Assembly: GCA_963422735.1 (NCBI GenBank)
Contig: OY730476.1
Location: 1,632,001 to 1,696,000, forward strand
Length of the DNA: 64,000 bases
Direction: 5' to 3'
From: Candidatus Latescibacterota bacterium
GTDB lineage: Bacteria; Latescibacterota; UBA2968; UBA8231
In this document: one piece after another, positions 5,883 to 53,383 of the stretch
Numbering within the stretch: position 1 is the first letter of the stretch
Layout of the letters: each line of letters opens with the position of its first letter
Translations under genes and position numbers: made by a program
The notes under the pieces: generated by a model
The model's input: the letters and a program-made list of their open reading frames with translations, nothing else
Database searches by the model: none
What the model was told of the DNA's origin: nothing

Positions 5883-6611
5883 ATGGAGAATAGGCAAAAC
5901 GTCGCCGAACACAAGAGGCGCAACCGAGACATGTTCAACGCCATTGCTCGGCGCTACGACTTGCTCAACCATCTTCTCAGCGGCGGCGTCGATGTGTACT
6001 GGCGGCGGCGCGCCCTCGACTGCACCCTAGAGACCGCCCCACAGCGCGTCTTGGACCTCGCTACTGGCACCGGTGATTTTGCCCTCGCGGCCGCTCGCCT
6101 AGGGCCGCAGCAAGTCGTCGGTATTGACATGGCCATTGAGATGCTGCGGCTAGGGGCGGCCAAGGTGGAAGCCAAGGGGCCGTCCGCGCGCGTGGATTTA
6201 TTAGTCGGCGACGCCGAGCAGCTACCGTTTCAGGACAATACCTTCGACTTGGTGACCGGGGCCTTTGGGGTGCGCAACTTTGGGCACATTCCCAGCGGTT
6301 TGGCCGAGGCCCTCCGCGTCCTCAAGCCCGGCGGCCAGCTTTTGGTACTCGACTTCTGCGAGCCTACCGCGCCGCTGTTTCGGCAATTGTACTTGTTCTA
6401 CTTCCACAAAGTGCTGCCCCTGATCGGCGGCTTAATCTCCGGCCAGCGCCGGGCCTACGCCTATCTGCCACGCTCGGTGGGGACCTTTCCCCAAGGGCAG
6501 GCCTTTGTCGAATTGCTCGTCGCGGCCGGTTTCAGCCAGACGCGCTACACACCCTTGACTCTAGGGATTGCCGCGGTGTACCAAGGCGTCAAAAGGCCGG
6601 TTGACGAATAG
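5883..6611 (+). CDS. menG: Demethylmenaquinone methyltransferase UbiE/MenG
   Basis: MFNAIARRYDLLN, LDLATGTGD, GDAEQLPF, FGVRN, AYAYLPRSV; adjacent to mqn genes. Confidence 0.9.
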   Translation: MENRQNVAEHKRRNRDMFNAIARRYDLLNHLLSGGVDVYWRRRALDCTLETAPQRVLDLATGTGDFALAAARLGPQQVVGIDMAIEMLRLGAAKVEAKGPSARVDLLVGDAEQLPFQDNTFDLVTGAFGVRNFGHIPSGLAEALRVLKPGGQLLVLDFCEPTAPLFRQLYLFYFHKVLPLIGGLISGQRRAYAYLPRSVGTFPQGQAFVELLVAAGFSQTRYTPLTLGIAAVYQGVKRPVDE

Positions 6612-6629
6612 GATCCCCATAGGTACTAT
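6601..6629 (+). promoter_or_regulatory. Sigma70 promoter candidate for the mqnE operon
   Basis: TTGACG-N17-TACTAT, about 22 bp before the mqnE start. Confidence 0.5.
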
Positions 6630-6651
6630 ATACTAAACGCGGGAGAAATAA

Positions 6652-7776
6652 GTGATTTACGACGACCTTATAGGCCGCGCCGGCCTCGCAGATGTCCACG
6701 ACAAAGTGCTGGCCGGCCAGCGCTTGAGCTTAGACGACGGCCTGCGCCTGTACGCCTGCGATGAACTGCCTATCTTGGGCTATATGGCCAATATCGTCCG
6801 CGAGCGCAAAAGCGGCGATATTGCGTACTACGTGCGCAACCAGCACATCAACTACACCAATATCTGCAACAAGCTCTGTAAGTTCTGCTCCTTCTACGTC
6901 AAGCCCAAAGACGAGCGCGGCTACGTGCTGGCACCCGAGCAGGTCGCCGCACGAGTCGCCGAGTACGATCAAGCCCCGATTACCGAGATCCACATGGTCG
7001 GCGGCGTCAACCCCAAACTGCCCTACCAATACTATCTAGATGTCTTGCGGGCGATGAAGCAAGCCCGCCCCACCGCGCATCTGAAGGCCTTCACCATGAT
7101 CGAGATCGCCCAGATTCAGCGCATCGCCAAAAAGCCGCTGGAAGAGGTCTTTGCCGATATGAAGGCGGCCGGGCTAGAGTCGCTGCCCGGTGGCGGGGCT
7201 GAGGTATTTAGCGATCGGGTTCAAGGCGACCTTTTCTGGACTAAGGCGGACTCTGAGGAGTGGCTAGAAATTGCTCAGACAGCGCATCGAGCCGGCCTGC
7301 CTTCCAACGCCACTATGCTTTACGGCCACATCGAAAATACCGAGGAGAAGGTCTATCACCTCGTGCGGCTGCGCGAAGTGCAGGACGAGACCGGGGGCTT
7401 CCTCTGCTATATCCCGCTTTCTTTTCACCCCGAGCGCACCGAGTTGGAGCACTTATCCGGGCCGACGGGTTGCCTAGATCTTAAGGAAATCGCCGTGGGG
7501 CGGCTGATGCTCGACAACTTTCCCCACGTCAAGACCTTCTGGATTATGAATACCATCGAGATTTCGCAGACCGCGCTCTGGTACGGGGCCGACGATATCG
7601 ACGGCACGGTCATGGATTACGAAATCACCCGCAAGAGTTTCACCCAGACCCAGCAGCGGCTGACTCAGGCCGAACTCGTGCAGCGCATCGTCGAGGCTGG
7701 TCGCCTGCCCTTGGAACGCGACTCCCTCTACAATATCGTCGCCGATACCCCGACTTTGCTGGCGGTGGCCGGATAG
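6652..7776 (+). CDS. mqnE: Aminofutalosine synthase (radical SAM)
   Basis: NYTNICNKLCKFCSF (CxxxCxxC), EIHMVGG, PGGGAE, HVKTFW, GADDIDGT. Confidence 0.88.
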   Translation: MIYDDLIGRAGLADVHDKVLAGQRLSLDDGLRLYACDELPILGYMANIVRERKSGDIAYYVRNQHINYTNICNKLCKFCSFYVKPKDERGYVLAPEQVAARVAEYDQAPITEIHMVGGVNPKLPYQYYLDVLRAMKQARPTAHLKAFTMIEIAQIQRIAKKPLEEVFADMKAAGLESLPGGGAEVFSDRVQGDLFWTKADSEEWLEIAQTAHRAGLPSNATMLYGHIENTEEKVYHLVRLREVQDETGGFLCYIPLSFHPERTELEHLSGPTGCLDLKEIAVGRLMLDNFPHVKTFWIMNTIEISQTALWYGADDIDGTVMDYEITRKSFTQTQQRLTQAELVQRIVEAGRLPLERDSLYNIVADTPTLLAVAG

Positions 7777-8924
7777 TGCCCGTGATCGCCGATATTGCCG
7801 AAAAGATCTATGCCAGAAAGCGCCTCGCGCTCGATGATGCCCGACGCCTGTACGCGCACCACAACCTCGCCGAGCTGGGGATGCTAGCGCATTGGGTGCG
7901 CCTGCAGAAACACCCCGAACAGGTGGTCACTTACAACGTCGGGCGCAACATCAACTACACCAATGTCTGCTGGGTCAAGTGCGACTTTTGCGCCTTCTAC
8001 CGGCCACCGGGTTCTAACGAAGGCTACATCCTGCCCCGAGAGCAGATATTTGCCAAAATCGACGAGTTGGTAGCCTTTGGCGGCGACGAGCCTAAGTCCT
8101 GCGAAATCCTGATGCAGGGCGGCCTCAACCCCAAGCTGCGCCTCGATTACTACGAACAGTTGCTCTCGGCGATCAGGGACCGCTATCCCCAAGTGCAGCT
8201 GCACTGTCTTTCGGCCACGGAAATCATCTACATCGCTCATCTGTCGCGACTGCCGCTGGACGAGACCATTCGCCGCCTGCGCGACGCTGGGCTGGATTCG
8301 ATACCGGGTGCCGGAGCCGAGATCCTCAACGACGAGGTGCGCGACATCATCGGCTTTCGCAAGGACCGCACCGAGGAGTGGCTGGAAGTGCATCGCGTGG
8401 CGCACGAACTGGGGATGCCGACCACCGCGACGATGATGTACGGCCACGTGGAGACGGTCGAACACCGCCTAGAGCACCTCAACCGCTTGCGGCAGCTACA
8501 GGACGAGCGCGGTGGTTTCACCGCCTTTATCGCTTGGAACTTCCAGCCCAACCACACGAACTTGGGCGCGGACGCGTCCCGCTGGAACGGCACCAAAGCG
8601 ACCGGCTACGACCACCTGCGCACGGTGGCCGTAGCACGGCTCTTCCTCGACAATATCCCCAGCCTGCAAGCCTCGTGGGTGACCCAAGGGCCTAAAATCG
8701 CCCAAGTCAGCTTGCGCTACGGCGTCAACGACTTCGGCAGCACCATGCTCGAAGAAAACGTCGTCAGCGCCGCTGGCACCAGTCACACCAACGAGATGGG
8801 CTTGGATGCTATGGAACGGCTAATCCGCGACGCCGGCCTTGCGCCGAGGCGGCGCAACACCCGCTACGAGCCGGTGGCTTCACCCTGTCGGATCAGCGTT
8901 TTGCAAGAGGCCCTCCATTCATGA
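7776..8924 (+). CDS. mqnC: Cyclic dehypoxanthinyl futalosine synthase (radical SAM)
   Basis: RNINYTNVCWVKCDFCAFYR, ILMQGG, QASWVTQG, DFGSTMLEENVV. Confidence 0.9.
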   Translation: MPVIADIAEKIYARKRLALDDARRLYAHHNLAELGMLAHWVRLQKHPEQVVTYNVGRNINYTNVCWVKCDFCAFYRPPGSNEGYILPREQIFAKIDELVAFGGDEPKSCEILMQGGLNPKLRLDYYEQLLSAIRDRYPQVQLHCLSATEIIYIAHLSRLPLDETIRRLRDAGLDSIPGAGAEILNDEVRDIIGFRKDRTEEWLEVHRVAHELGMPTTATMMYGHVETVEHRLEHLNRLRQLQDERGGFTAFIAWNFQPNHTNLGADASRWNGTKATGYDHLRTVAVARLFLDNIPSLQASWVTQGPKIAQVSLRYGVNDFGSTMLEENVVSAAGTSHTNEMGLDAMERLIRDAGLAPRRRNTRYEPVASPCRISVLQEALHS

Positions 8925-9715
8925 AGCCGCGCTTGGGCGCGGTCCCGTACCTCAACACGCAGCCCCTCGTCTTTGCCCTCGAAAGCGATCCCGCACCTTT
9001 CGCACTGAGTTATTCGGTTCCCTCGCGCTGCGCGAGAAAACTGGCGGCCGGCACCATTGATGTGGGGATCATTCCCTCAATCGAATACGCCCGCAGTCCT
9101 CGCCCCTACTGGATCGTCCCGGACATAGCTATTGGTTCGCAGGGTCCGGTGCTGACGGTGCGCCTCTTTTGCCGCCGTCCGTTGCCGCAGATCAAGCGCA
9201 TAGCCTTGGATCCCAGTTCCCGCACTTCAGTAGCTTTGTTGTCCATTCTTCTGCGCGAAAAATTCGCTCGCACCCCGCAATTGATCGAAGCCCCGCCCGA
9301 TCTGAAGGCCATGTTAGAGTGCGCCGATGCGGCCCTGCTCATCGGCGATCAAGTATTCCCGCATTTGGACGAGGACTTGGAGAGCCTAGACTTGGGTCGG
9401 GAATGGACTGCCATGACCGATCTGCCTTTTGTCTTTGCTTTTTGGGCCGGTCGCCAACAGGCGCTGACACCCGCCCAAGTCCAACAATTGCAGTGGGCCA
9501 AAGATCAGGGGTTATGCCAAGTGCCGTCCATCGCCGCAACATATAGCCGAGAATGCGGCGGTTCGCCCGAGTTCTACGAGCGCTACCTGACCCACCACAT
9601 CCGCTTTGATTTGGACGAGGCCGCCCAAGCCGGGTTGCGGCTGTTCTACCAACTAGCTCATCGTCACGGCCTGATCGACGCGGTTCCCCCGCTGCGCTTT
9701 TATCCAGCGGCCTGA
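8921..9715 (+). CDS. mqnA: Chorismate dehydratase
   Basis: GAVPYLNTQP, SSRTSVAL, ALLIGD, DLGREW, LPFVFAFW. Confidence 0.9.
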   Translation: MKPRLGAVPYLNTQPLVFALESDPAPFALSYSVPSRCARKLAAGTIDVGIIPSIEYARSPRPYWIVPDIAIGSQGPVLTVRLFCRRPLPQIKRIALDPSSRTSVALLSILLREKFARTPQLIEAPPDLKAMLECADAALLIGDQVFPHLDEDLESLDLGREWTAMTDLPFVFAFWAGRQQALTPAQVQQLQWAKDQGLCQVPSIAATYSRECGGSPEFYERYLTHHIRFDLDEAAQAGLRLFYQLAHRHGLIDAVPPLRFYPAA

Positions 9716-9745
9716 CCTAGGCCGCCCTTGTCGAGGAAGGTCGAG

Positions 9746-10636
9746 ATGGCTCCCTTGTTACAGGCCATTGCGGTGTACGGCCGCATGATCAAATTTTCCC
9801 ACAGCGTCTTTGCCCTACCTTTTGCCTTTAGCGGAGCCTTGCTGGCCGCGACGTACGCTGGCATCACCCCGGCCCAAATCGGCTGGATCGCGCTGGCCAT
9901 GGTCGGGGCGCGCAGCGCGGCGATGGGTTTTAATCGCCTCGTTGACCGCCACCTCGACGCGGCCAATCCCCGCACCCAAAACCGCGAACTGCCGCGAGGT
10001 GTGGTCTCGCCCCAAGCCGTGGGGTTGTTCGTGGTTCTGTCGGCCCTCGTCTTGGTCTTGGCAGCTTACCAGCTCAACCCTTTGTGCTTTTACCTGTCGC
10101 CGCTGGTTTTGGCTGTACTCTTGTTCTATTCGCTGACCAAGCACTTCACTTGGGCCTCCCACTTGGTTTTGGGGCTGAGCTTAGGCGGGGCACCGCTGGG
10201 TGCTTGGATTGCGGTCACCGGCGGCTTTGACCTCATCCCGCTGCTGCTCTGCTTGGGGGTGCTGGTTTGGGTGGCCGGCTTTGACATCATCTACGCCTGC
10301 GAGGATCGCGCCTTTGACGTGCGGGCCGGACTCCATTCCATCCCGGTCCGCTTTGGCACTGCCCGTGCCCTGTACATCGCCCGCGCCTTGCATCTGTTGT
10401 TCGTGGTGCTGCTAGTCCTCGTGGGCCGCACGGCCGGCTTGAGCCTTTTATACTGGTTGGGTGTAGTAGTGGTCGCCGGCTTGCTGGTGTACGAGCACCG
10501 GCTGGTGCGGGCCGACGACCTGTCCCGCCTGAGCACGGCCTTTATGACGATCAATAGCACGGTCAGCCTGATCTACTTTGCCGCGATCTTAGCCGATCTG
10601 CTCGTCTTTGGCGAGGGGGAATTGCTGCGATTTTGA
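9746..10636 (+). CDS. mqnP: UbiA-family polyprenyltransferase (futalosine-pathway MqnP type)
   Basis: MIKFSHSVFALPFA, ARSAAMGFNRLVDRHLDAANPRT, WVAGFDIIYA; multiple TM segments. Confidence 0.85.
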   Translation: MAPLLQAIAVYGRMIKFSHSVFALPFAFSGALLAATYAGITPAQIGWIALAMVGARSAAMGFNRLVDRHLDAANPRTQNRELPRGVVSPQAVGLFVVLSALVLVLAAYQLNPLCFYLSPLVLAVLLFYSLTKHFTWASHLVLGLSLGGAPLGAWIAVTGGFDLIPLLLCLGVLVWVAGFDIIYACEDRAFDVRAGLHSIPVRFGTARALYIARALHLLFVVLLVLVGRTAGLSLLYWLGVVVVAGLLVYEHRLVRADDLSRLSTAFMTINSTVSLIYFAAILADLLVFGEGELLRF

Positions 10637-12966: not shown

Positions 12967-14949
12967 ATGAGTACCGATTCCTTTGCAGAAATCGTCGGCG
13001 AGACCGATGATCCGATCTACCAAGTCCGCACCCGCGCTCCCGGTCCTAGCGGCAAGCTGCCGCTGACCATAGAGCAGGTCGTCGAAGCGCCGAGTGGCCA
13101 CATCTTTGGCTACAGCCAGAACGCGGGAATGGGCTGGAACCCCGCCGAACTAGGCCGGGGAGAATTCCTCATCGTCAGCACCCAAGGCGGCATCCGCGCC
13201 CCGGACGGTCGGCCGATCGCGCTGGGCTACCACACTGGCCACTGGGAAATCGGCCTATTGATGGAGGCCGCTGCCGAGGAAATCCACCGCCGGGGCGGCA
13301 TCCCCTTTGCCGCCTATTGCTCGGACCCGTGCGATGGCCGCTCGCAGGGAACGACCGGCATGTTCGATAGCTTACCGTACCGCAACGACGCGGCCATGAT
13401 CCTGCGCCGCTTGATCCGCTCGTTGCCAACGCGGCGCGGCGTGATGGGCGTGGGCACCTGCGACAAGGGATTGCCGGCGGTTCTCATCGCCTTAGCTGGT
13501 ACGCCGGACCTGCCGGTCATTGTCGTGCCCGGCGGGGTGACCCTGCCGCCGGAAGAAGGCGAGGACGCGGGCAAGATCCAGTCGGCGGGTTCGCGGCTGG
13601 CGCGGGGCGAGATGAGCATTGACGACTTTCAGGTGCTCGGCTGCCGCGCCTGCGCCACGCCGGGGGGCGGCTGCCAGTTTTTGGGGACCGCGGCCACGGC
13701 TCAGGTTGTGGGCGAGGCACTGGGGCTTTCGCTGCCGCATTCGGCGCTGGCTCCTTCGGGAGAAGCGGTCTGGCGCGATATGGCCGTGCGCTCGGCGAGG
13801 GCACTGATGGCACTGGAGGCCGCGGACATTCGCTCGCAGGAGGTGGTCACCGAACAGGCACTGCACAACGCCATGGTCGTCCACGCGGCCTTTGGTGGTT
13901 CGACTAATTTGATATTGCACGTACCGGCCATTGCCCATGCGGCCGGGCGGAAACGGCCGGAAGTGGGGGATTGGGACCGGATCAACCGCGAGGTGCCGCG
14001 CTTGGTCGATGTGCTGCCCAACGGCCCGGAGTTCCACGTTACCGTGCGCGCCTTTTTGGCTGGCGGGGTGCCGGAGGTCATGTTGCACCTGCGGCGCTTG
14101 GGGCTTTTGGAGGAGGGGGTAATGACGGTCACGGGCCGCACACTGGGCGAAAATCTCGACTGGTGGGAGAGTGCGCCGCGCCGCCACCGCTTCCGCGAGG
14201 AACTGCGCAAGCTAGACGGGGTGGACCCGGACGACGTGATTATGGACGCCAGTCGCGCCCGCGCCAAGGGCCTGACCAGCACCACCTGCTTCCCGGTTGG
14301 CAACATCTCGCCCGAGGGCGCGGTCGTCAAAAGTACGGCCATTGATTCTTCATTGCTGGACGCGCAGGGAATCTATCGACACACGGGGCCAGCGAAGGTT
14401 TTTACCACCGAACGCGACACCATCGCCGCAATCAAGGCCGGCGCGATCGAGCAGGGCGACGTACTGGTGATGATTAGCTGCGGGCCGATGGGCACGGGCA
14501 TGGAGGAAGTCGCGCAGGTTACGATCGCGCTCAAATACACGGATATTGGCAAGCGCGTGGCACTGCTTACGGACGCGCGGTTTTCGGGGTTTTCCTCCGG
14601 CCCTTGTATCGGGCATATCGGCCCAGAGGCTTTGGCTGGTGGGCCGATCGGCAAGCTGCGAGACGGCGACTTGATCGCCATTGAAATCGACTGCTACAAC
14701 CTGCGCGGACGCATCGACTTGGTCGGCTGCTTAGGAGAGGAGTTCGGCGTAGAGGAAGGCCAGCGAGTGCTGGCCGAGCGCACCTTGCGTCCAGACCTTG
14801 CGCCCGAAGCGGAACTGCCCGACGACACTAGGCTGTGGGCGGCTTTGCAAAACGTCGGCGGTGGTACTTGGGGCGGTTGCGTTTATGATGTGGATGCGAT
14901 TGTCGCCACGCTCGAAGCGGGTCGCGCGGTGCTAAAGGGGGCGTCGTGA
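12967..14949 (+). CDS. YjhG/YagF-family D-xylonate dehydratase (IlvD/Edd superfamily)
   Basis: [58 protein letters not shown]. Confidence 0.92.
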
Positions 14950-15560
14950 GCGGCAAGCAGATCGTCGTCGGCATCACCGGAGCCAGTGGCGCACTCTACG
15001 CTGGCCGCCTGCTGCGCGCCCTGCTGATCGGCGGGCACCAAGTGCATTTGGTCCTGTCTAAATACGGGCGCTACCTGCTCGTCGAAGAGTTGGGTTTCCG
15101 CCCCGACAAGGAGAGCCTACGAGCGTTTATAAGGCGGTGCTATGGGGAGGAGACCCAAGCCGGCGAACTGCACGAGTACAACGCTGGTGACCTATCGGCC
15201 TCCATAGCCAGCGGTTCGGTGCCTATCGACGGCATGGTGGTGGTGCCTTGTTCGGCCAAGACGCTTTCGAGCATCGCTCGCGGGGCGTCTTCGAGTCTGA
15301 TTGAGCGAGCCGCCGATGTCAGCCTCAAGGAGCAACGACCGCTGGTGCTGGTGGTGCGCGAGACCCCGCTCAACCTGATTCAGTTGCGCAATATGACGGC
15401 GGCGGCCGAGGCTGGAGCCGTCATTCTGCCGGCCATGCCGGCTTTTTATCAAAAGCCGCAGACCTTTGACGATTTGGGCGATTTCATCGCTGGCCGCGTC
15501 TGCAACATGCTGCGGATCGAACACCAGCTCTTCCCCTCTTGGCCGGGGCCTGCGCGATAA
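14946..15560 (+). CDS. ubiX: Flavin prenyltransferase
   Basis: [38 protein letters not shown]. Confidence 0.92.
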
Positions 15561-44387: not shown

Positions 44388-45857
44388 ATGTTTCGTCCCG
44401 AGCAAAATACCAGCTTGCGCCTCCAGCAAAAGATGGCACCGCAGCTCATTCAATCGCTGCGGCTGTTGCAGATGTCCACCTTAGATCTGGCGCTGGAGAT
44501 CAAGCAGCAGCTCGAACTCAACCCCTTGCTCGAAGAGGCCTTTGAACTAGGCGAAGAAGGGGAAGAGGAGCTGCGCGATCGGGAGGAGGGGATCAAGGAA
44601 GAGGAGGAACTGCCCGAAGACATGGAGGCGGTTGATCGGGACGCGCTGTTGGGCGACCAGTTCGACGCGGGCGCGTACAATAGCGAGCGCACGGAATACG
44701 ATTCCAATTGGGAGACTGATCGCGAGCCACAGGAAAACCGCATCACCGCCATGCCGCCCCTCTTAGAGCACCTGTACCATCAGCTAGGCGAGATTGGCGA
44801 TTTGGGACCGGAAGAGCGAGCCATCGCCGAGTACATCATCGGCAATATCGACGAGCGTGGTTACGTCGGCTGCCCGCTCGCCGAGATTGCCGACGATCTA
44901 GCGGTCGAAGTCTTAGCCGTGGAAAAGGTGTTGCGCGTCATTCAGGCCTTTGACCCGCCTGGGGTCGGCGCACGCGATCTGCGCGAGTGCCTGATGATCC
45001 AGTTGAGTCAGCGCGACGATCCACTCAGCAAGCTGGCCTTGCAGGTGGTGCGCGATCACATGGAGTATCTGACGCGGCGGCGTCTGCGGCACATCACCTG
45101 CGCCTTAGACATCTCCAGCGAGAAGCTCAAAGAGATTCTGCAGGTTATCGAGCGATTACAGCTGCATCCGAGCCTGTCGGCGAGCAGCGATTACAACAAG
45201 CTCTTGACCCTCGATACCGAGGTCGCATACATCACGCCGGATTTGGTCGTCGAAAAGATTGGCGAGGAGTGGGCCGCGTCGCTGGCCGACGGATCCATGC
45301 CGTCCTTAAAGATCAATTCTGAGTACCAGCAGCTTCTTAGCAACGCCCATGGCAACAGCGAGGATGCTATCAAGGACTACGTATCCAAGAATCTCAACGA
45401 CGCCCGCTGGCTCATCAATGCCATCCACCAGCGCCGCACGACCATGCTCAAGGTGGCCAATTACCTGTTGCAGGCGCAGTTGCCCTTTTTCGAGGAGGGG
45501 CCGGCGCGGCTGCGGCCCATGGTCTTGCAGGACGTGGCCGACGCGGTGGGAATGCACATATCGACGATTAGCCGCGTCAGCAACGGCAAGTACATACAGA
45601 CGCCGCACGGGGTCTTTGAGCTGAAGTACTTCTTCGACAACAAGCTCAGTACGGACAAGGGCGAAGAAGTGTCCGTGCGCTCGGTAAAAGAGAAAATTTC
45701 GCAGCTCGTCGCCGACGAGGACAAGAGCCGGCCGCTTTCGGACCAACAGATTGTCGAGGAACTGAACAAGGACGGCTTAAAAATTGCGCGGCGTACGGTG
45801 GCCAAATATCGCTATCAGCTAAAAATTCCTGCACAGCGCTATCGCAAGGGGCTATGA
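44388..45857 (+). CDS. rpoN: RNA polymerase sigma54 factor
   Basis: PQLIQSLRLLQ, NPLLE, PPGVGARDL.ECL, HISTISR, RpoN box ARRTVAKYR. Confidence 0.97.
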   Translation: MFRPEQNTSLRLQQKMAPQLIQSLRLLQMSTLDLALEIKQQLELNPLLEEAFELGEEGEEELRDREEGIKEEEELPEDMEAVDRDALLGDQFDAGAYNSERTEYDSNWETDREPQENRITAMPPLLEHLYHQLGEIGDLGPEERAIAEYIIGNIDERGYVGCPLAEIADDLAVEVLAVEKVLRVIQAFDPPGVGARDLRECLMIQLSQRDDPLSKLALQVVRDHMEYLTRRRLRHITCALDISSEKLKEILQVIERLQLHPSLSASSDYNKLLTLDTEVAYITPDLVVEKIGEEWAASLADGSMPSLKINSEYQQLLSNAHGNSEDAIKDYVSKNLNDARWLINAIHQRRTTMLKVANYLLQAQLPFFEEGPARLRPMVLQDVADAVGMHISTISRVSNGKYIQTPHGVFELKYFFDNKLSTDKGEEVSVRSVKEKISQLVADEDKSRPLSDQQIVEELNKDGLKIARRTVAKYRYQLKIPAQRYRKGL

Positions 45858-45889
45858 GGCGCCCCCTTCCTTCCGCATAATCGACAGTG

Positions 45890-46321
45890 CTACTCTGGCG
45901 ACTTCCATCGAATATACCATCCATCTTCGTCGCGATGGACGCACTCGGGCCGGTCGCCTTTCTGGATGAATTTATTGTATAAATTGGAAATATCCATCTT
46001 CTTCCTTTTTCTCCCTTCCTCCCACAATGCGCCTTCCGACAATGCGTCAAGGATGGACGACCGCAAACTGTCGTCTATCCCCCACAGCGCATCCATCACT
46101 CGGTCATATTGGGCTACATAAGGTCTTGAATCTGGGCAGCCCATGCTGTCGGCTGTTTCTTGTTGGGTTTTCCCACCTCGGAGTCCCAGTTTATGGAACA
46201 GGGCGATGCGCTGGCTTATAGTTATGTGCTTCTGCTTTTTAAAAATGTTGGCGATTGCGGATCTGGGCAGTTCAATGCTCTCATTCTTGTCGAGGGCACT
46301 CAATAGGTCGCTTAGATACAT
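45890..46321 (-). CDS. Hypothetical low-GC protein, possible HTH
   Basis: GGAGG RBS before ATG; KTQQETADSMG resembles an HTH first helix; AT-richer than flanks. Confidence 0.55.
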   Translation of the reverse strand: MYLSDLLSALDKNESIELPRSAIANIFKKQKHITISQRIALFHKLGLRGGKTQQETADSMGCPDSRPYVAQYDRVMDALWGIDDSLRSSILDALSEGALWEEGRKRKKMDISNLYNKFIQKGDRPECVHRDEDGWYIRWKSPE

Positions 46322-46348
46322 TGGGAACCTCCGTGTTGAGAAGCGTCA

Positions 46349-46570
46349 TTAGAAGTGTGCAATTAACGACCTAAGCGCTTTGTTCACAGATTCGGAATCG
46401 GGAAAATGTTGTCTTACATCTGGGTCGAGCATAACGGAACCCTCTTCGAGTGCAAAGTAGTGAACTTAGGTTGAGCCATCTCGTTTTTCTACTTTTGCTA
46501 AATGTCTCTGACGATACGCTTTATAGTGCTTCCCACGCACACTAGCAGAAAAATCGTACTCTGCCCTCAT
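46349..46570 (-). pseudogene. BrnA-like antitoxin with in-frame stop
   Basis: Not in ORF track. MRAEYDFSASVRGKHYKAYRQRHLAKVEKRDGST*VHYFALEEGSVMLDPDVRQHFPDSESVNKALRSLIAHF; TAA at 46466-46468. Confidence 0.75.
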
Positions 46571-46643
46571 TTCGTCCATTCCTTATCTCGTATCTGTCTT
46601 CAGTGAACGCGGTACCGACGAGAACTGTGGGGATGGCCGCGAC

Positions 46644-47897
46644 TTAGCGCAATTGTCCCGCGCCGTCAAAAGCCATCTCGGCTAGTGCGCCGATTTGCTC
46701 TAAATCGGGATGGTCGCCGAACTCTCGCAGTAGGCTTGCGGATAGCTCGATGTGGCCGATGTCGAGGGTGTTTTTGATGCGGACGACGCGCGCCTGTTCG
46801 GAATTGGCGAGATTTTGCACCGACAGCGCGGCCTCAATGGCTGCGCGGTCGGTTTCCATGACGACAGGGATGTACGCGCGGTTGAGGAAGGTGGTGGTGA
46901 AGACGTTGGCGTACGTAGCCTTGAAGTCGATGCGCTCGTACAAACGGCGGGTGATGATGTCGGCGAGGCCGACGCCGTTGGCATTGCCGTGGGTTTCGTC
47001 GGTCAGGTCGAGAACCACGATGCGGGCCGAGCCCGGGGACTCCGGCTCTTTGACGCCGGGCAGGAGCATGCGGCCGACGACGTTGGTGTCCATACCTGTG
47101 CCCGAGATATTCTTGCCGATTTGTTCGATGATTAGCAGGTCGATACCTTGGACTAAGATGCGGGGCATGGTGCGCCGCGCTTTTTCCAAAAGCTGCGGCT
47201 CGCGGCTTGGGAACTGCCCGGGTTGAAGGGCTTCGACGCGGAGGGTCTCTTCATAGGCGTTTTCGACGATGGCCAACCCCATGAGAATCGGTGCTTTGTC
47301 GAGGATGCAGCGGCCCCAAGCCGGGATCAAGCGGGCGAGGCTCTCAGCACCCCCGGCATGGGCGATGGTCGCGCCTTTGTGGCTACCTAGGCCAATGGTC
47401 ATCATCTTCATCAGGCCGCTTTCAAAGGTGCCGCGAAAGGAGGTGTGCGGCTTGATGCGGTTGATGAGCACTACGCCATCGGCTTCGGTGGCGAGCCGGT
47501 TGAGCAGCACTGGGGTGCCGTCGTCGAGCTGGGCGACTTCGACGACGGCCATGGTCGCCTCAACCGGGCAACCCATGCTCTGGGCGTCGAGACCGTATCC
47601 GGCCAGTACCTGCTTTTGGCCTTCAGCTGTGGCTCCGCCGTGGCTGCCCATAGCCGGCAGCAGGAAGGGCGTGCCGCCGGCCTCTTTGACGCAGTCGATG
47701 ACGGTGCGGGTGATGAGCGGGATATTGGCGATGCCACGGCTGCCGCCCGCAACGGCAATCCGCGCACCGGGGGCGATGGCGTCGGCTAGGCCAGCGCGCG
47801 CTAGCTGGCGGCGGACCTCGCCGGCCACGTCGGCGAGCGAGTCGCTGGCAAAGTGCTGCTTGACGAGGGCCATTTGCGGTAGTTGCACGGCGGGCAC
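46644..47897 (-). CDS. LarA-like (lactate racemase N-domain / DUF2088-DUF362) protein
   Basis: GSRGIANI, PAMGSHGGATAEGQ, NRIKPHT.F, ESGLMKM, GKNISGTGMDTN. Confidence 0.85.
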   Translation of the reverse strand: MPAVQLPQMALVKQHFASDSLADVAGEVRRQLARAGLADAIAPGARIAVAGGSRGIANIPLITRTVIDCVKEAGGTPFLLPAMGSHGGATAEGQKQVLAGYGLDAQSMGCPVEATMAVVEVAQLDDGTPVLLNRLATEADGVVLINRIKPHTSFRGTFESGLMKMMTIGLGSHKGATIAHAGGAESLARLIPAWGRCILDKAPILMGLAIVENAYEETLRVEALQPGQFPSREPQLLEKARRTMPRILVQGIDLLIIEQIGKNISGTGMDTNVVGRMLLPGVKEPESPGSARIVVLDLTDETHGNANGVGLADIITRRLYERIDFKATYANVFTTTFLNRAYIPVVMETDRAAIEAALSVQNLANSEQARVVRIKNTLDIGHIELSASLLREFGDHPDLEQIGALAEMAFDGAGQLR

Positions 47898-47899
47898 CT

Positions 47900-48469
47900 C
47901 TATCCCTCGCCGACTAGGGCGGTGCGCAGGCGTTGGGCGCGCTCGCGGATCGGCCGGGCCGGTTTGGGCACCGGCTCAGCGGCCGGGGCAATTTTCCAGA
48001 TAAAGACGACCGGGCCTTGTTCCTCAAAGTGCTGGTCGAGCTTGGCGTCGAAGTCCTCGTCGGAGTCGATCGTATAAACGCGCTGAAGGCCGGCCCCACG
48101 ACAGATTTGCTCGTAGTCGATAAAAGCGGCACCGGGCACGGGCTGACTGCCGGTTACTTCATACGTGCCGTTTTCAGTGATGACGAGGGTTAGATTCGGG
48201 GTCGGGCGCTGAGCTAAGGTGACGAGGACGCCCAGCGACATGAGGGTGCTGCCGTCGCCGTTGAGGCACAAGATCCGCCGCTCGGGCCGGGCGATGGCCA
48301 AACCCAGCGCAAAGTCGGCGGCGTGGCCCATGGCGCTTTCGACGTGGGCAAAGTCTAGCGGGCCATCGGAGTGCGCGGCCCAAGGCATGGCCACGCTCAT
48401 GGTGGTGACTACAACTTCGTCCGTGCGTTTGGCGGCCAGTTTTTTGAGGCAGGTGTATTTGTCGAGCAT
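47900..48469 (-). CDS. TPP-dependent decarboxylase beta subunit (ComE / phosphonopyruvate decarboxylase-like)
   Basis: AMGHA, GLAIARP, TPP motif GDGSTLMSLG..ENGTY; start ATG 48469 just after the upstream stop. Confidence 0.85.
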   Translation of the reverse strand: MLDKYTCLKKLAAKRTDEVVVTTMSVAMPWAAHSDGPLDFAHVESAMGHAADFALGLAIARPERRILCLNGDGSTLMSLGVLVTLAQRPTPNLTLVITENGTYEVTGSQPVPGAAFIDYEQICRGAGLQRVYTIDSDEDFDAKLDQHFEEQGPVVFIWKIAPAAEPVPKPARPIRERAQRLRTALVGEG

Positions 48470-48470
48470 C

Positions 48471-48989
48471 TCACGCAGTCTCCGCGACGAGCAACACCGC
48501 AGTCGGCAGCGAGGTCTCTTGGGCCTTCGCGAAAGCGTCGTCGATCTGGCCGCTGTCGTCGTCTGTGTGCATGGCGGTGTAGGGAATGTTCCAAGCCTTG
48601 AGGGTCGGCTCAAAGAAGGTAGCGGCCGTATCGATCCGGGGGACACCTCCGGCCATGGTCGCGTAGCCGCGATAGCCGACGAGCATTACGAGGGGAATGC
48701 CCATGTTGTAGGCCGTGCCGCGGAAGGCGTCGCCAGCTTCTAAAAAGCCCGTGTTCTGGATCAGCACCAGCGGATGGGCACCGCCCAAGTACAGCCCGGA
48801 GGCCAGGCCATACGCCTCGCCCTCGCGGCTGGTGAGGATCACTTCGATGGTGTCGTGGTCCCACAGGCACTCGTACAGGGCGCACGAGCCGTTGTCTGGT
48901 ACTCCTAGCACATGCGTGACGCCGTGCCGTTCGAGGGCGGCGATGATCTGGGCGGCGCTGATCACGGGCTTACTCGGCGAAGATCGCAC
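48471..48989 (-). CDS. TPP-dependent decarboxylase alpha subunit (ComD-like)
   Basis: GVPD, SREGEA.GLASG, LIQNTG, IPLVMLVGYRG. Confidence 0.85.
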   Translation of the reverse strand: MRSSPSKPVISAAQIIAALERHGVTHVLGVPDNGSCALYECLWDHDTIEVILTSREGEAYGLASGLYLGGAHPLVLIQNTGFLEAGDAFRGTAYNMGIPLVMLVGYRGYATMAGGVPRIDTAATFFEPTLKAWNIPYTAMHTDDDSGQIDDAFAKAQETSLPTAVLLVAETA

Positions 48990-50166
48990 GGGTGGAGGTA
49001 CCGCTCTGATGACCTTGCTGCTGGATGCCGCCGATAAACTGGGCGGTGCGGCCAGCCGGTGCGGTGCCTGCGTAGTACGCGCTGAAGGACTCGTTGAAGG
49101 TGGCTATCGCGGCGCGATTCTGCGCAGAGTTGGGACCGGCGACGATGTAGGCGTTGTTGAAGACGCCGTCCTCTTTGAGACCCACGCCTCCGGCTTCCTT
49201 GATCCGGGCGTCAAGCGTATCGAGCTGCTGGCCGGCGTCGCTGCCCCCAACGGCCGAAACGTGGACTTCGCGCACACCGTGATGGCACAAGCCCGCCCAA
49301 GTTGAGAAGCCGTCCTCGATTTGCCCCGAGCGCACGATTTCGACTTCGCCGGAGACCACGCGCGGCTGTGGCTCGATGATGCCGTCGAGATTGGGTATCC
49401 GCGACACCGGGTAAATCAGGCCGGCGGGGCGGTCGTCGCCGTAGTAATCTGCAAAGACTTGGCGGGTGGTCTCGATGCGTTCCCAGGCTTTGTCCGGAGC
49501 GTCGTCCACGGCCACGAGAATCTCCATGAATACGGTCTGCTTTTTGAAGTCAACGCCTTGTTCGGCAAAAGGCTTGGCGTATTGCTCTTCGAGGATGAAG
49601 CGCATTTCTTCGGCCAAGTCGTCGCCGAGCGTGGTGATCATTTCGCCGTCCCGCTCGTGCATGACCGAAGCACCCGAGGGTTGGTGATCCACCCAAGTGC
49701 CGTAGTCGATCTGGCCGCTGCTGATGGAGACGGTCTCGCCTGCACAGGCCTTGATCTGGACCTCGAAGAGAGCCGCTGGGTCTGGGAAACCCTCCGGGTG
49801 GGTGAAGCGAGCCATGCGGTTGGAGCGCAAGGAGCCGCCGGTGACGGCTGCGATCATGGCCCCGTAGCAGGCGTTGAAGTCGTTTTTGCGCTGGTCGCAC
49901 TCGTCGCGGTCGGCAGAAGGAGTGGTCCACAAGACATCGGTTTTGTACACGTCCGACCAATGGACGCCGCAAATTTCGAGGCCCTTGTTGAGGTTTTCGA
50001 TGGTGCCGAACCACTCCGAGCCGACGTCGTTGGCGTATTGAGTGCCGACGTTGCCCGAAGGCTCGACTAGGCGCACGACGTGGCCGTTGTCGTCGGTGAT
50101 GAGCACTTCAGTGGGGTTGGAAAAGATGGCGATGGGGTTGTGGCGGACGATATTGACTTGGGCCAT
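48970..50166 (-). CDS. Protein with three tandem Rid/YjgF-like domains
   Basis: Three units of about 130 aa with Rid-like pattern: SGNVG..TIENL..G..WSDVYKT..FNACY..R..LFEVQ; VFADYYGDDRPA..IIEPQ; FNESFSAYYAGTAPAGR; GAGGAG RBS. Confidence 0.6.
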   Translation of the reverse strand: MAQVNIVRHNPIAIFSNPTEVLITDDNGHVVRLVEPSGNVGTQYANDVGSEWFGTIENLNKGLEICGVHWSDVYKTDVLWTTPSADRDECDQRKNDFNACYGAMIAAVTGGSLRSNRMARFTHPEGFPDPAALFEVQIKACAGETVSISSGQIDYGTWVDHQPSGASVMHERDGEMITTLGDDLAEEMRFILEEQYAKPFAEQGVDFKKQTVFMEILVAVDDAPDKAWERIETTRQVFADYYGDDRPAGLIYPVSRIPNLDGIIEPQPRVVSGEVEIVRSGQIEDGFSTWAGLCHHGVREVHVSAVGGSDAGQQLDTLDARIKEAGGVGLKEDGVFNNAYIVAGPNSAQNRAAIATFNESFSAYYAGTAPAGRTAQFIGGIQQQGHQSGTSTRAIFAE

Positions 50167-50256
50167 GAGCTCCTCGGTTGATTTTGTGAAGGGTTGCCGC
50201 GAATTATACTACAAAAAGTACGCGGTCTGCCGACGATAGACAATAGGGAGGGGCAG

Positions 50257-50937
50257 ATGTCCACCTGCGTTGTACTCTTTGCCAAAGAACCAGCCCCCGG
50301 AGCGGTCAAAACCCGGCTTCAGAGCCATTTGAGTGCCCCCGAGGCTGCACGCCTGTACGAGGCCCTGCTGCTCGATTGCGCCACGGCACTACACGAGACA
50401 AAGGCCGCTGCCAAGGTCGTGGCCTTTGCCCCGGCCAATGCCAAAGACGCCCTGCGCACCCTGCTAGCCCCGATAGGCGTCTTCGAGTACGTGCCGCAGA
50501 TAGAAGCCGATCTAGGGCAGAGAATGGAAGCCCTGATGCAGTGGGCCTTTGCGCGGGGGGCCGAGCGGGTGGTCCTCGTCGGCTCGGACAGTCCTTCTCT
50601 ACCGGCCGCGCATATTGACGAAGGGCTGGCGCTCTTGCGCGAAAAGGAAGTGGTCTTAGGCCCGAGCACGGACGGGGGCTACTACTTGGTGGGCAGAAGA
50701 GAAGGGAAAAGCCGGATATTCCAAGACGTGGCTTGGAGCACCGGAATGGTGCTTGAGCAGACCCTAGCGCACTTGGGAAAGCAAACCCTCGGCCTGCTGC
50801 CGCCTTGGTACGATGTGGATACGCCGGCCGAAGCCGGATTCCTAAAGGTACATCTCGAAGCCTTGGCGCGGGCGGGTAGTACCCAAGGGCGGCACAGCTT
50901 GGCCGTGCTGCGCGACCTCGCACTGCCGCTGCCCTAG
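50257..50937 (+). CDS. DUF2064/TIGR04282-type nucleotidyl/glycosyltransferase-like protein
   Basis: FAKEPAPGAVKTRL, DLGQRM, VGSDSP, VLGPSTDGGYYLVG, DVDT. Confidence 0.88.
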   Translation: MSTCVVLFAKEPAPGAVKTRLQSHLSAPEAARLYEALLLDCATALHETKAAAKVVAFAPANAKDALRTLLAPIGVFEYVPQIEADLGQRMEALMQWAFARGAERVVLVGSDSPSLPAAHIDEGLALLREKEVVLGPSTDGGYYLVGRREGKSRIFQDVAWSTGMVLEQTLAHLGKQTLGLLPPWYDVDTPAEAGFLKVHLEALARAGSTQGRHSLAVLRDLALPLP

Positions 50938-51470
50938 CGGTCGGCTTCCCTGCGGAACAAGGCTTCCCAGTGATCTAGGTCGTCCGGGCCGAGGGACGGG
51001 TGGGGTTCCGTGCCGTCGCGGGCGGGTGCCGTCGCGGACGCGCTCGGGGCCTGGACGGGTTCGGTGAGTTCGTCGAGAAAATCCTCGGAACGGGTCGAGC
51101 GGATCTTGTGGCGCACGGCGCAGCGCTGGATTGCGCGGTCGGAGCTGATGACCCGCAGCCACTTGGCACCGTGCTTTTTCGCGAGGGCCCGTGCGATCAG
51201 GTCATCGGCCTGCTGAGGGTAGCGCGAGAATTCTATGGTGACGTATGGGCCGCTCGCGTTCGCCGCGCTCGGTGCTGCGCCGGTGCCGTCGTAGTACAGG
51301 GTAATGTGCTTGTCGGCGCGGCGGCCGTAGGCAGCGAGTGCCTGCTGCAAGCGGTGGCGTGCTCGTTGCAGCGTGTCGCCTCGGCCTTGGAAGAGCTGGC
51401 TCGATTTGATGAGGTTGTAGCCGTCTATGAGTAAGTGCTCTCTCTTGGTGTCCACCGCTGCCGTCCTCAC
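50934..51470 (-). CDS. NYN-domain (YacP/Rae1-like) protein
   Basis: LIDGYNL, YYDG, ADDLI, VISSDRAI. Confidence 0.85.
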   Translation of the reverse strand: MRTAAVDTKREHLLIDGYNLIKSSQLFQGRGDTLQRARHRLQQALAAYGRRADKHITLYYDGTGAAPSAANASGPYVTIEFSRYPQQADDLIARALAKKHGAKWLRVISSDRAIQRCAVRHKIRSTRSEDFLDELTEPVQAPSASATAPARDGTEPHPSLGPDDLDHWEALFRREADR

Positions 51471-53314
51471 ACGAGCTGGATGCCTTGGGCGTTGAGCTGA
51501 TAGGAGACTACGCTGCTTTTGGCAAAGGCCGCGTGTTGGCGTAGCTTGTCGAGCCTTGCGCGCAACGCGGTCGCTTTCCCTTCCGCAGCGATGAGGAGGG
51601 CGAAGCCGCCGCCGCCGGCCCCGGTGATAAGCCCGCCCTCGGTCAGGTCGGTGATCTGCGGATTCTCGAAAAGGTGTTGCAAGGCGTCGTTGGTGGCCTG
51701 GGGGTCGAGGATGCAGCGCAACTGCCAGTAGCGGTCGGCCAGCCGCCCAAGATCGGCGTACGCGCTCGCGCGCAGCGCAGCCACCATTTCGTCGTGAATG
51801 GCCAGCGACTCGCGGATGGCCGCGTAGCGCTGGCCATCCCGCGACAGATAGGCGTCAAGAACGACGTTGAGGCCGCGAGTCGCCGAGCGCGAGATCCCCG
51901 TGTCGAAGAGCACGACTCGCTCGGTGAACAAGCTCGCGTCCACCTCGGTGAGGAATGTGCATTCGGGCGCGGGTAGGCCGTTGGTCGGCGGCGCGTAGAA
52001 GTTCTTGATGGCCGAGGGGCCGCCACTGGCGCCGCGCGCATCCTGCCAACCGCTGTTGAGGCCGAGGCTTTGCTCGAGCATGAGGCTGTGGTCGTAGAGG
52101 CTAGGGTACTCACATGCGGGCGCGGCGTAGGGGTGCCCGGAGAGGTGGTAGAGCATTTTGAGGATGGCGGCGGACAAGATGCCGCTGGTCCCCAAGCCGG
52201 ACCCTTGTAGCACCTTACTACGGGTGGTGATTTCCAAGCCGCCGCCGTCGGTAAAGGCAGCGATGTCTTCGATGACATCTGTGGAGTTCGGCCGGACGAT
52301 GCCCGCGTGTACCAGCCCTTGTTTGACCAACCGCAGGGCTTCGTCGCCGCTGCGGCGGTAGGCAAAGAACAGCTCGCTGGCGGTCGCGGCCGAGCTGTGT
52401 TTGCTGGCCTCAAAGTCGGCCTTGAAGCCCATAGAGCGAGAGCGGAGGACGAGCTGGGGTTCGGCGAGCCTCCGTGCGGAGACTTCCAACGGTGGTTGGG
52501 CGCACTCTTCCCGGCCCTGTTGCAGATTGATAGCGATGTTGAGCGTCTTGCCGCCCTGTTCCTTGCTGCGCAGGTGATTGTCCGAGGCATTGGCACTGGA
52601 GATGCCCAAGCGCAGGGGCGATTGGATGCAAAAGGCTTGCTCGTAAGCTGATTCGATCATCCTCGGCTCGGCCGTGTAGCCCTTGTCGAGGGCGGCCAAG
52701 CTGCGCCGCAGGTCCATGCTCTGTAGCTGATTGATCCGCGCCTCGTAGGCCGCGGCCAGTTTGTCGATGTGCTTGGCTTCTTTGAGCTCGACGATGTCTT
52801 GGTCGTCAATGCAACAGGGTGGCAGCGAGCGCCGTCGCCAAGCTCGCGGCTCGGCGGCGAGCGTTCGGTAGATGTCGGCCATGATGCGGGCGACGCGCAT
52901 GCCGCGCAGGCAGCGGACCGAGAGATCGCATTCTTCTAGATAGGTATTGAGGCGTTTGAGCACTTGCAAGAGCGTCTTGGAGGATTGGGGGGGCAAAAAC
53001 TGCAGCAGTTGGCGGTGGTCGAGATCGACCAAGCCATCGACCAAATCGACGATTAATTGCGGTAGCTGTTTGGCGACTGCATCGCCGAAGAGCGCGTTCC
53101 ACTCGCGGGGCGTGGTTGAAGCGAGGAGCACGTCAATGGCCGCGGGGGTATCTAGGCGGGACAAAAGCGCCCGATTGAAGAGCAGGTAGCGGAGGAAGCG
53201 GTGCTTTTCTTCGGGCTTGCCGCCGGACCGCGCCGCGTCGAGGATGTGATCGACGAGCGATTGGACTTCGCGCAAATCAGCGGCTTGTTCGAGGCGTGCA
53301 AGGAATGCTTCCAT
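51467..53314 (-). CDS. GHMP-family kinase, fucokinase-like, with helical N-terminal extension
   Basis: SPLRL, GSGLGTSGIL, EQ..SGWQD, GAGGGGF. Confidence 0.75.
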   Translation of the reverse strand: MEAFLARLEQAADLREVQSLVDHILDAARSGGKPEEKHRFLRYLLFNRALLSRLDTPAAIDVLLASTTPREWNALFGDAVAKQLPQLIVDLVDGLVDLDHRQLLQFLPPQSSKTLLQVLKRLNTYLEECDLSVRCLRGMRVARIMADIYRTLAAEPRAWRRRSLPPCCIDDQDIVELKEAKHIDKLAAAYEARINQLQSMDLRRSLAALDKGYTAEPRMIESAYEQAFCIQSPLRLGISSANASDNHLRSKEQGGKTLNIAINLQQGREECAQPPLEVSARRLAEPQLVLRSRSMGFKADFEASKHSSAATASELFFAYRRSGDEALRLVKQGLVHAGIVRPNSTDVIEDIAAFTDGGGLEITTRSKVLQGSGLGTSGILSAAILKMLYHLSGHPYAAPACEYPSLYDHSLMLEQSLGLNSGWQDARGASGGPSAIKNFYAPPTNGLPAPECTFLTEVDASLFTERVVLFDTGISRSATRGLNVVLDAYLSRDGQRYAAIRESLAIHDEMVAALRASAYADLGRLADRYWQLRCILDPQATNDALQHLFENPQITDLTEGGLITGAGGGGFALLIAAEGKATALRARLDKLRQHAAFAKSSVVSYQLNAQGIQLV

Positions 53315-53383
53315 GTGCGTCCTCAACGGGCGAGGGTGCGCTGCAATTGGCGAAAATTATACGCAAAAAACGCGCACCGCGCA

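Follow-up and report, generated by a model that had tools for sequence, protein, structure and literature searches.

The 64,000-nucleotide (nt) stretch analysed here (the window) comes from Candidatus Latescibacterota bacterium (assembly GCA_963422735.1, contig OY730476.1, positions 1,632,001 to 1,696,000). Between positions 46644 and 50166 it contains four co-oriented open reading frames (ORFs) on the minus strand, here called A, B, C and D, which fill this interval exactly (Table 1). They encode a protein predicted to consist of three fused Rid-like domains, the two putative subunits of a split thiamine diphosphate (ThDP) enzyme and a protein of the LarA superfamily. A first-pass annotation, made from the sequence alone, had described four co-oriented genes that overlap or nearly abut, and this layout is borne out, with gaps of 1–4 nt or an overlap depending on the start assigned to B. 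The longest ORF of B begins with a GTG at position 48989 and shares 20 nt with A; an alternative GTG at 48965 lies 4 nt past the stop codon of A, and the tblastn alignments of orthologues start there. With the latter start, the genes are separated by 4 nt (A–B), 1 nt (B–C) and 2 nt (C–D). What is new at this locus is the combination, in one operon, of a new family within a known fold, a divergent decarboxylase branch and an uncharacterised LarA group.

Table 1. Operon genes and other features of the window (coordinates are positions in the window)
Feature	Position	Strand	Description
Gene A	50166–48970	minus	398 amino acids (aa), ATG start; first gene of the operon
Gene B	48989..48471 (longest ORF)	minus	predicted alpha (PYR-domain) subunit of a split ThDP enzyme; 164 aa from the probable GTG at 48965
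Gene C	48469–47900	minus	189 aa, ATG start; predicted beta (PP-domain) subunit of a split ThDP enzyme
Gene D	47897–46644	minus	417 aa, GTG start; LarA superfamily, group 22; last gene of the operon
Divergent spacer	50167..50253		from A to the plus-strand DUF2064/TIGR04282 gene; presumed promoter region of the operon
DUF2064/TIGR04282 gene	50194–50937	plus	CofC-like nucleotidyltransferase
GHMP protein	51467–53326	minus	619 aa; fucokinase-like in its C-terminal part
D–rpoN spacer	45858–46643		about 790 nt, lower G+C
Sigma-54 gene (rpoN)	44388–45857	plus	
Menaquinone gene set	5883–10636 and 14946–15560		futalosine type
IlvD/Edd-family gene	12967–14949		dehydratase

A scan for relatives of A, with one genome per species, yielded 139 stretches, and the locus counts given here refer to the best 80 loci, which were compared by tblastn and are almost all labelled as Latescibacterota. 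The order A-B-C-D is found in 44 of these 80 loci, at 58–95% protein identity (tblastn), and both gene order and tight spacing are kept down to 58–70% identity. Three loci are ended by a contig edge after B or C. In four others A is followed by D without B and C, and in 29 A occurs without B, C or D, 3 of the latter being uninformative, with less than 300 nt downstream of A. Three of the 44 complete loci (L072, L089 and L090), as well as the contig-cut L070, show a gap of 0.8–1.2 kb between A and B, which in L072 contains a BirA-like gene.

The modules A, BC and D were also followed in a survey of 168 Latescibacterota genomes. As these are related to one another, the counts are descriptive only; many of the genomes are 75–95% complete. 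BC is present in 73 of them, A in 102 and orthologues of D, recognised by E ≤ 1e-125 and an identity of 57% or more, in 82. All three modules occur together in 60 genomes, every one of which belongs to the window's own family (f1). Incomplete sets consist of A and BC (three genomes), A and D (six), BC and D (two), BC alone (eight), A alone (33) or D alone (14), and none of the modules was found in 42. The co-conservation that the first-pass annotation had proposed as a check is therefore borne out only in part, since each module also stands alone. An obligate four-gene pathway, which we considered, is ruled out by this occurrence of the modules apart from one another. The operon is real and stable, though its parts can live apart.

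Further evidence comes from RNA-library contigs of relatives, about 92% identical to the window, which bridge the genes of the operon. They originate from three metatranscriptomic libraries of three studies, the library type of one run (X6) being our guess. One contig of 3,623 nt (X19) spans 46664–50197, that is, all four genes together with 31 nt upstream of the ATG of A, and another of 2,385 nt (X17) spans 47718–50102. These contigs are compatible with a polycistronic RNA, although a single transcript is not provable thereby, and transcription of the four genes as a unit is probable.

Sulfopyruvate decarboxylase (ComDE) and phosphonopyruvate decarboxylase (Ppd) convert a 2-oxoacid to an aldehyde by decarboxylation. 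B and C match the Pfam families TPP_enzyme_N (45.3 bits, cut-off 26.8) and TPP_enzyme_C (68 bits, cut-off 21.9), respectively, and a GDG...N stretch, which we take to be the diphosphate-binding motif, can be read in the sequence of C. The scores obtained with curated models of named decarboxylases lie below the cut-offs: B reaches 76.4 bits with sulfopyruvate decarboxylase alpha (TIGR03845, cut-off 147.95), C reaches 97.3 bits with the corresponding beta subunit (TIGR03846, cut-off 221.5), and with Ppd (TIGR03297, cut-off 312.5) B and C attain 53 and 93.9 bits, the whole-genome scan giving the same result. The top model of C is the unnamed NF004813 (PRK06163, 'hypothetical protein'), also below its cut-off (109.2 versus 240 bits). 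The nearest solved structures are RhiE for B (9iz3_A, E 1.6e-12) and RhiF for C (9iz3_B, E 1.4e-10); RhiEF is described in a review as a split phosphonopyruvate decarboxylase homologous to ComDE (PMC12141560). Both ComDE and RhiEF have the same two-subunit make-up as B/C, namely one protein with a PYR domain (about 165 aa) and one with a PP domain (about 190 aa). Being nearest to ComDE, Ppd and RhiEF, yet scoring at a quarter to half of the curated ComDE/Ppd cut-offs (a sixth for B with the fused Ppd model), B/C belong to neither equivalog, and their operon further differs from those systems in having no coenzyme M or phosphonate context. Judged from these profiles, B/C are predicted to be the subunits of a heteromeric ThDP enzyme within the ComDE/Ppd branch, and they are the sole Ppd-like genes of the genome. 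The earlier description of a ComD/ComE-like pair was thus correct as to the nearest NCBIfam models (ComDE/Ppd), with RhiEF as the nearest structure, but is weakened by scores that fall well short of the equivalog cut-offs.

At E ≤ 0.01, A has no match in NCBIfam or among the Pfam families, PF01042 (Ribonuc_L-PSP) included. A word-indexed search returned 189 relatives at E ≤ 0.001, 63–95% identical among the 120 matches listed, and phmmer against 1.84 billion representatives yielded, apart from fragments, a single full-length cluster at 50% identity. In the ESM Atlas the protein falls into its own Latescibacterota clusters, a PF01042 cluster at 0.86 being a lead only. The sole sequence echoes are Rid proteins (2dyy, 2b33, 1qah and 7cd2), at sub-threshold E values of 0.1–0.9 (phmmer, hmmsearch), and in some sources members of the family carry the label 'enamine deaminase RidA'. 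An AlphaFold (AF2) model built with 47 homologues (pLDDT 84.3, pTM 0.88) retrieved cyanuric acid hydrolases and chorismatases in Foldseek (E 5e-8 to 1e-6). VIA-align ranked the chorismatases clearly first (5a3k, Z 20.1; 5ag3, Z 19.9; 4bps, Z 19.5), with a root-mean-square deviation (rmsd) of 3.3–3.4 over 269–272 of the 398 residues and 11–12% identity. FBXO22 came second (Z 11–12), cyanuric acid hydrolases and barbiturase gave Z 7.4–8.8 with an rmsd of 5–6, and residues 143–280 superposed on many single RidA chains (Z 7.4–7.9, rmsd about 2, about 110–120 aligned residues; for Z 7.9, rmsd about 2.1 and about 115 residues). According to the model, A consists of three YjgF/Rid domains fused in one chain as a chorismatase-like pseudo-trimer. 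The designation 'triple-Rid' protein in the first-pass annotation was accordingly right at the level of the fold, with the chorismatases as nearest structural matches, and A is a new sequence family within this known fold.

The chorismatases FkbO/Hyg5 (4bps, 5a3k, 5ag3) are, like A, single chains of YjgF/Rid-like domains forming a pseudo-trimer. They hydrolyse an enol-pyruvyl ether and release the 2-oxoacid pyruvate, which fits a role of A beside a 2-oxoacid decarboxylase. The likeness of A to the FkbO/Hyg5/XanB2 family is at the level of the fold, with no Pfam or NCBIfam match and 11–12% identity in the structural alignment, and no gene for the biosynthesis of a chorismate-derived product was recognised among the immediate neighbours of the operon. 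Each third of A also has the fold of the RidA/YjgF/UK114 imine–enamine deaminases; however, RidA is a homotrimer, whereas A has its three domains fused and no PF01042 match. The arginine of the PAR motif of RidA binds the substrate carboxylate and is essential for RidA activity. In domain 2 of A, the one domain alignable by sequence, the PAR of the Rid proteins PH0854 and TM0215 is aligned to PAG247–249, so that the arginine is absent from that site. Cyanuric acid hydrolase and barbiturase ('Toblerone' fold), whose family has Ser-Lys dyads, likewise contain three concatenated YjgF-like domains per chain (Foldseek E 5e-8), but the match of A to them is far weaker than that to the chorismatases. 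Within A, hhalign finds domains 2 and 3 weakly alike (E 0.006, 43 columns) and aligns domain 1 with neither, so that it is the structure from which the triplication is deduced. About 100 positions of A, among them R117, R120, E135, R256, E265 and R373, are invariant across the 47 sequences.

LarA enzymes act by hydride transfer to their cofactor, a nickel-pincer nucleotide (NPN). D matches the NCBIfam model NF052515 (nickel pincer cofactor-dependent isomerase, group 22) with 531.3 bits, above the cut-off of 400 and over model positions 1–388 of 392, as well as Pfam Lar_N (31.9 bits), which upholds its earlier annotation as a LarA-like protein. The group numbering of NF052515 agrees with the 25 groups of LarA homologues (LarAH) of Desguin et al. 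2020 (PMC7583248), where group 22 is listed with 'unknown function'. The motifs GSHGG, KPHT, GLMK and AHA of D (His/His/Lys/His) are invariant in eight group-22 sequences; the members printed in the supplement of PMC7583248 show GSHGG, KPHT, GL(L/M)K and (L/A)HA, and its signature table lists R, H, H, K and H for group 22. H86 (GSHGG), H151 (KPHT), K164 and H180 of D are the equivalents of LarA His108 and His174 (catalysis), Lys184 and His200 (cofactor binding), and residues 116–182 align with LarA (8ezf) at the H...K...H positions, albeit in a weak alignment (E 0.92). D thus shares both motifs and an above-cut-off score with LarAH group 22, but differs from it in context, the neighbours published for the group (PMC7583248, Table S1) including no ThDP decarboxylase or Rid-like gene. 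As the first-pass annotation had suggested, the genome was searched for larBCE: LarB (289.2 bits, cut-off 175), LarC (PF01969, 452.7 bits, above the cut-off) and LarE (TIGR00268, 314.4 bits, cut-off 150) are all encoded, and the nickel-pincer cofactor can therefore be made. A second group-22 gene, 43% identical to D, is located elsewhere in the genome (G000:C1:1076294-1077469; locus L010 8151-9548), directly after an Fe-dependent alcohol dehydrogenase gene (L010 7121-8278) and upstream of genes for a D12 adenine methyltransferase, a PhyH-like protein and a NUDIX protein. The loops that differ between D and this second copy may line the substrate pocket.

The reading that we build on gene order, spacing, conservation, the family or fold of each product and the presence of larBCE is that of a genuine operon, vertically inherited in one Latescibacterota family and made up of three separable modules that would each act at C2 of a carboxylic acid; taken as a whole, it has in our judgement about an even chance of being correct. 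We infer the reactions, by analogy with known members of each family, as well as a metabolite common to them and the order of the steps. D, as an NPN-dependent enzyme of the LarA type, would invert or shift a 2-hydroxy centre via a transient 2-oxo intermediate. A would most likely produce or clean up a 2-oxoacid through protonation and hydrolysis of an enol ether, enol, enamine or imine, as suggested by the chorismatases and RidA. Finally, B/C would act as one heteromeric ThDP enzyme that strips CO2 from the 2-oxoacid to give an aldehyde, as in ComDE and Ppd.

A carbohydrate-derived acid is the leading candidate for the substrate, ahead of a C3 sulfonate or phosphonate. The enzymes might then handle an aldonate or uronate together with its 2-keto-3-deoxy derivative, which would be cut by one carbon. 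Published neighbours of group-22 genes comprise short-chain dehydrogenases/reductases (45%), IlvD/Edd dehydratases (30%), tripartite ATP-independent periplasmic (TRAP) transporters (30%), sugar kinases (25%) and glucuronate isomerase (20%) (PMC7583248, Table S1). Where the modules of the operon stand alone, their contexts are of a similar kind. In family f3, D is the last gene of an operon, following two Amidohydro_2 genes; this operon also contains genes resembling those of 2-phosphoglycerate kinase and of an M24 peptidase, and D faces KdgD-like and GarL/HpaI-like genes. In family f4, A lies behind genes for a GalK-like kinase and an NTP_transferase protein, and a UxuA-like gene is divergent from it or close by. 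A further set of A-only loci has A among genes for a fuconolactonase-like Amidohydro_2 protein, a 404-aa protein of the pyridoxal phosphate (PLP) fold, a Zn-dehydrogenase and a family-5 ABC transporter; the PLP-fold partner has no homologue in the source genome at E ≤ 1e-10. BC alone, in family f2, is located behind genes for a GFO/IDH/MocA oxidoreductase and a D-2-hydroxyacid dehydrogenase. The A proteins of the loci with the PLP-fold neighbour (L042–L063) are 75–77% identical to that of the window, and those of family f4, which belongs to the same class, only 62–66%; the tree of A may depart from the species tree.

It is also conceivable, though we regard it as unlikely, that A founds an enzyme family in the chorismatase/triple-Rid fold and that, together with D and B/C, it constitutes an undescribed route that converts a 2-hydroxy acid into a 2-oxo acid, which is then shortened by one carbon to an aldehyde. 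Such a route might lead, for example, from an aldonate to a 2-keto-3-deoxy acid and then to a 2-deoxy-aldose; alternatively, the NPN enzyme may be a true isomerase that hands over a free 2-oxoacid. If true, either route would be the first to tie a nickel-pincer enzyme to thiamine chemistry. A literature search, which included the supplements of PMC7583248, gave no description of this gene combination or of a function for group 22, in line with the remark of the first-pass annotation that the combination was not recognised from a described pathway.

Should the modules indeed share a metabolite, this would provide the first function for LarAH group 22, listed as unknown in PMC7583248, as well as one for the divergent branch of ComDE/Ppd decarboxylases and one for the family of A, which has no Pfam or NCBIfam model and forms a single 50%-identity cluster. 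Latescibacterota, which our searches cover through metagenome-assembled genomes, would moreover gain a route of catabolism or salvage.

Several observations weigh against the preferred reading of a single operon whose modules meet on a carbohydrate-derived acid. The RNA contigs attest the presence and bridging of the genes, not transcript ends, strand or level, and carry-over of DNA is possible; one of them (X15) contains D and part of C and then continues for 1,682 nt past the end of D with sequence unlike that of the window. The operon has no dehydratase, dehydrogenase or transporter gene, so that the pathway, as read here, is incomplete. The sugar-acid contexts all come from other genomes, none lying within the window, and the context data for group 22 concern paralogues only about 43% identical to D; the lead of the carbohydrate-derived acid is accordingly moderate. 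Among characterised enzymes, those closest to B/C use C3 sulfo- or phosphonopyruvate and not sugar acids. Modules A, BC and D are separable, none of them needing the others. Finally, the operon occupies a conserved housekeeping slot (rpoN, lptB, YacP and sometimes birA), so that the co-conservation of its genes is in part a matter of common descent within a single family.

The candidate substrate that we place second is sulfopyruvate or phosphonopyruvate; the first-pass annotation had seen the activities of the operon converge on a substituted pyruvate, giving these as examples. According to this alternative, which strikes us as rather improbable, the substrate would be a C3 acid bearing an anionic group: D would racemise sulfolactate or phosphonolactate, A would hydrolyse the imine formed from cysteate or phosphonoalanine, and B/C would decarboxylate sulfo- or phosphonopyruvate to sulfo- or phosphonoacetaldehyde. 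In a sub-variant, B/C would be the missing Ppd of the phosphoenolpyruvate (PEP) mutase pathway of the genome. The best named NCBIfam models for B/C are indeed those of the sulfopyruvate decarboxylase subunits and Ppd, the nearest solved relative is the split Ppd RhiEF, and a RidA gene beside that of cysteate sulfo-lyase offers a published precedent (PMC11193023). On the other hand, B/C remain far under all three equivalog cut-offs, the operon has no aminotransferase or dehydrogenase gene to make the 2-oxoacid, the known group-22 contexts are of the sugar-acid type (PMC7583248), and glycine replaces the arginine of PAR in the best-aligned Rid domain of A. The proposed search for xsc was negative, the best match to Xsc (TIGR03457) in the genome reaching 293.3 bits against a cut-off of 676.4; ComA, ComB, ComC, SuyAB, PhnW and PhnX were not searched for. 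An apparent tie of LarA to sulfonates in the literature was also discarded, the 'LarA' mentions being author names in reference lists.

The phosphonate variant deserves separate consideration. The window contains no phosphonate genes, as had been stated, but the genome does encode a PEP mutase above the cut-off (356.8 bits, cut-off 319.55), located 0.94 Mb away. Its cluster (L112) has no recognisable gene for a Ppd or an aminotransferase, and B/C, as the only Ppd-like genes of the genome, would be candidates for the missing step. In the survey, with a threshold of E ≤ 1e-60, PEP mutase was found in seven of the 168 genomes, all seven of which carry BC; it was not detected in 66 of the 73 genomes with BC, which led us to reject a dedicated Ppd function for B/C. 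Together with the sub-cut-off scores of B/C, the Xsc result and the sugar-acid contexts, the presence of PEP mutase in only 7 of the 73 BC genomes weakens the proposed convergence on sulfo- or phosphonopyruvate. A PEP mutase without a recognisable Ppd other than B/C nevertheless raises the question of how the phosphonate pathway of this genome is driven. The PEP mutase (G000:C1:2616596-2617441; L112 9585-10883, minus strand) is a protein of 432 aa with a fused N-terminal cytidylyltransferase domain, and its gene is followed by one for a CDP-alcohol phosphatidyltransferase (L112 8715-9452).

Alternatively, there may be no single pathway at all, three independent functions being co-transcribed for convenience in a stable housekeeping neighbourhood near rpoN in one bacterial family. 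We consider this doubtful, to about the same degree as a C3 substrate. It would account for the fact that every combination of modules was encountered (A, D and BC alone, A with D, A with BC, and BC with D) and that all 60 genomes with the three modules belong to family f1. It would also agree with the variable contents of the conserved chromosomal slot, which is bounded by rpoN and lptB on one side and by the genes for DUF2064, YacP and the GHMP-like kinase on the other: this slot holds A-D in L083, BirA-B-C in L106 and A-BirA-B-C-D in L072, the genome of L106 having A elsewhere and no D orthologue that we could find. However, the spacing of 1–4 nt is maintained, suggesting translational coupling, gene order is unchanged down to about 60% identity, and B-C-D remain contiguous despite the gene inserted after A in L072, L089 and L090. 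Moreover, the chemistry of all modules would have C2 of a carboxylic acid as its centre, something hardly to be expected of unrelated genes. Lastly, it is very improbable that A, with a FIST-like architecture, serves to bind small molecules or to regulate and is not a pathway enzyme: FBXO22, whose module we presume to be of the FIST type, is its second-best structural match (Z 11–12), but chorismatases match far better (Z 20 versus 12), A heads a metabolic operon and has no output or DNA-binding domain, and some 100 invariant positions in 47 sequences fit an enzyme at least equally well.

The operon is flanked by housekeeping genes. Beyond D lie genes for a CTP synthase, a protein with an LptD_N domain, an ABC ATPase and sigma-54, and the opposite flank of the operon consists of the DUF2064/TIGR04282 gene, a YacP-like NYN gene and the gene for the 619-aa fucokinase-like GHMP protein. 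The pair formed by the TIGR04282 gene and that of the 619-aa protein is kept in the slot of relatives with or without A (L083, L106 and L116). A promoter scan of 45800–50400 gave no match to a sigma-70-type consensus, and the six terminator-like sites of the same interval are at chance level (4.4 expected). The spacer between D and rpoN contains an ORF of 143 aa without a Pfam match, in addition to very short ORFs. The corresponding gap measures about 165 nt in the relative L083, and the RNA-library contigs of relatives part from the window sequence right at 46664; this spacer may be a strain-specific insertion.

The futalosine-type menaquinone gene set of the window includes a UbiE-like methyltransferase, two radical-SAM CofH/MqnC-like genes, a VitK2_biosynth gene, a UbiA prenyltransferase and a UbiX-like flavoprotein. 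A tie between this set and the operon was considered and rejected, the two being about 40 kb apart and not co-conserved in the loci examined. The window also encodes the IlvD/Edd-family dehydratase given in Table 1. In one relative (L119 4417-6407, minus strand), a SMODS nucleotidyltransferase and an S_4TM effector form a defence pair resembling a cyclic oligonucleotide-based antiphage signalling system (CBASS), about 2 kb from A.

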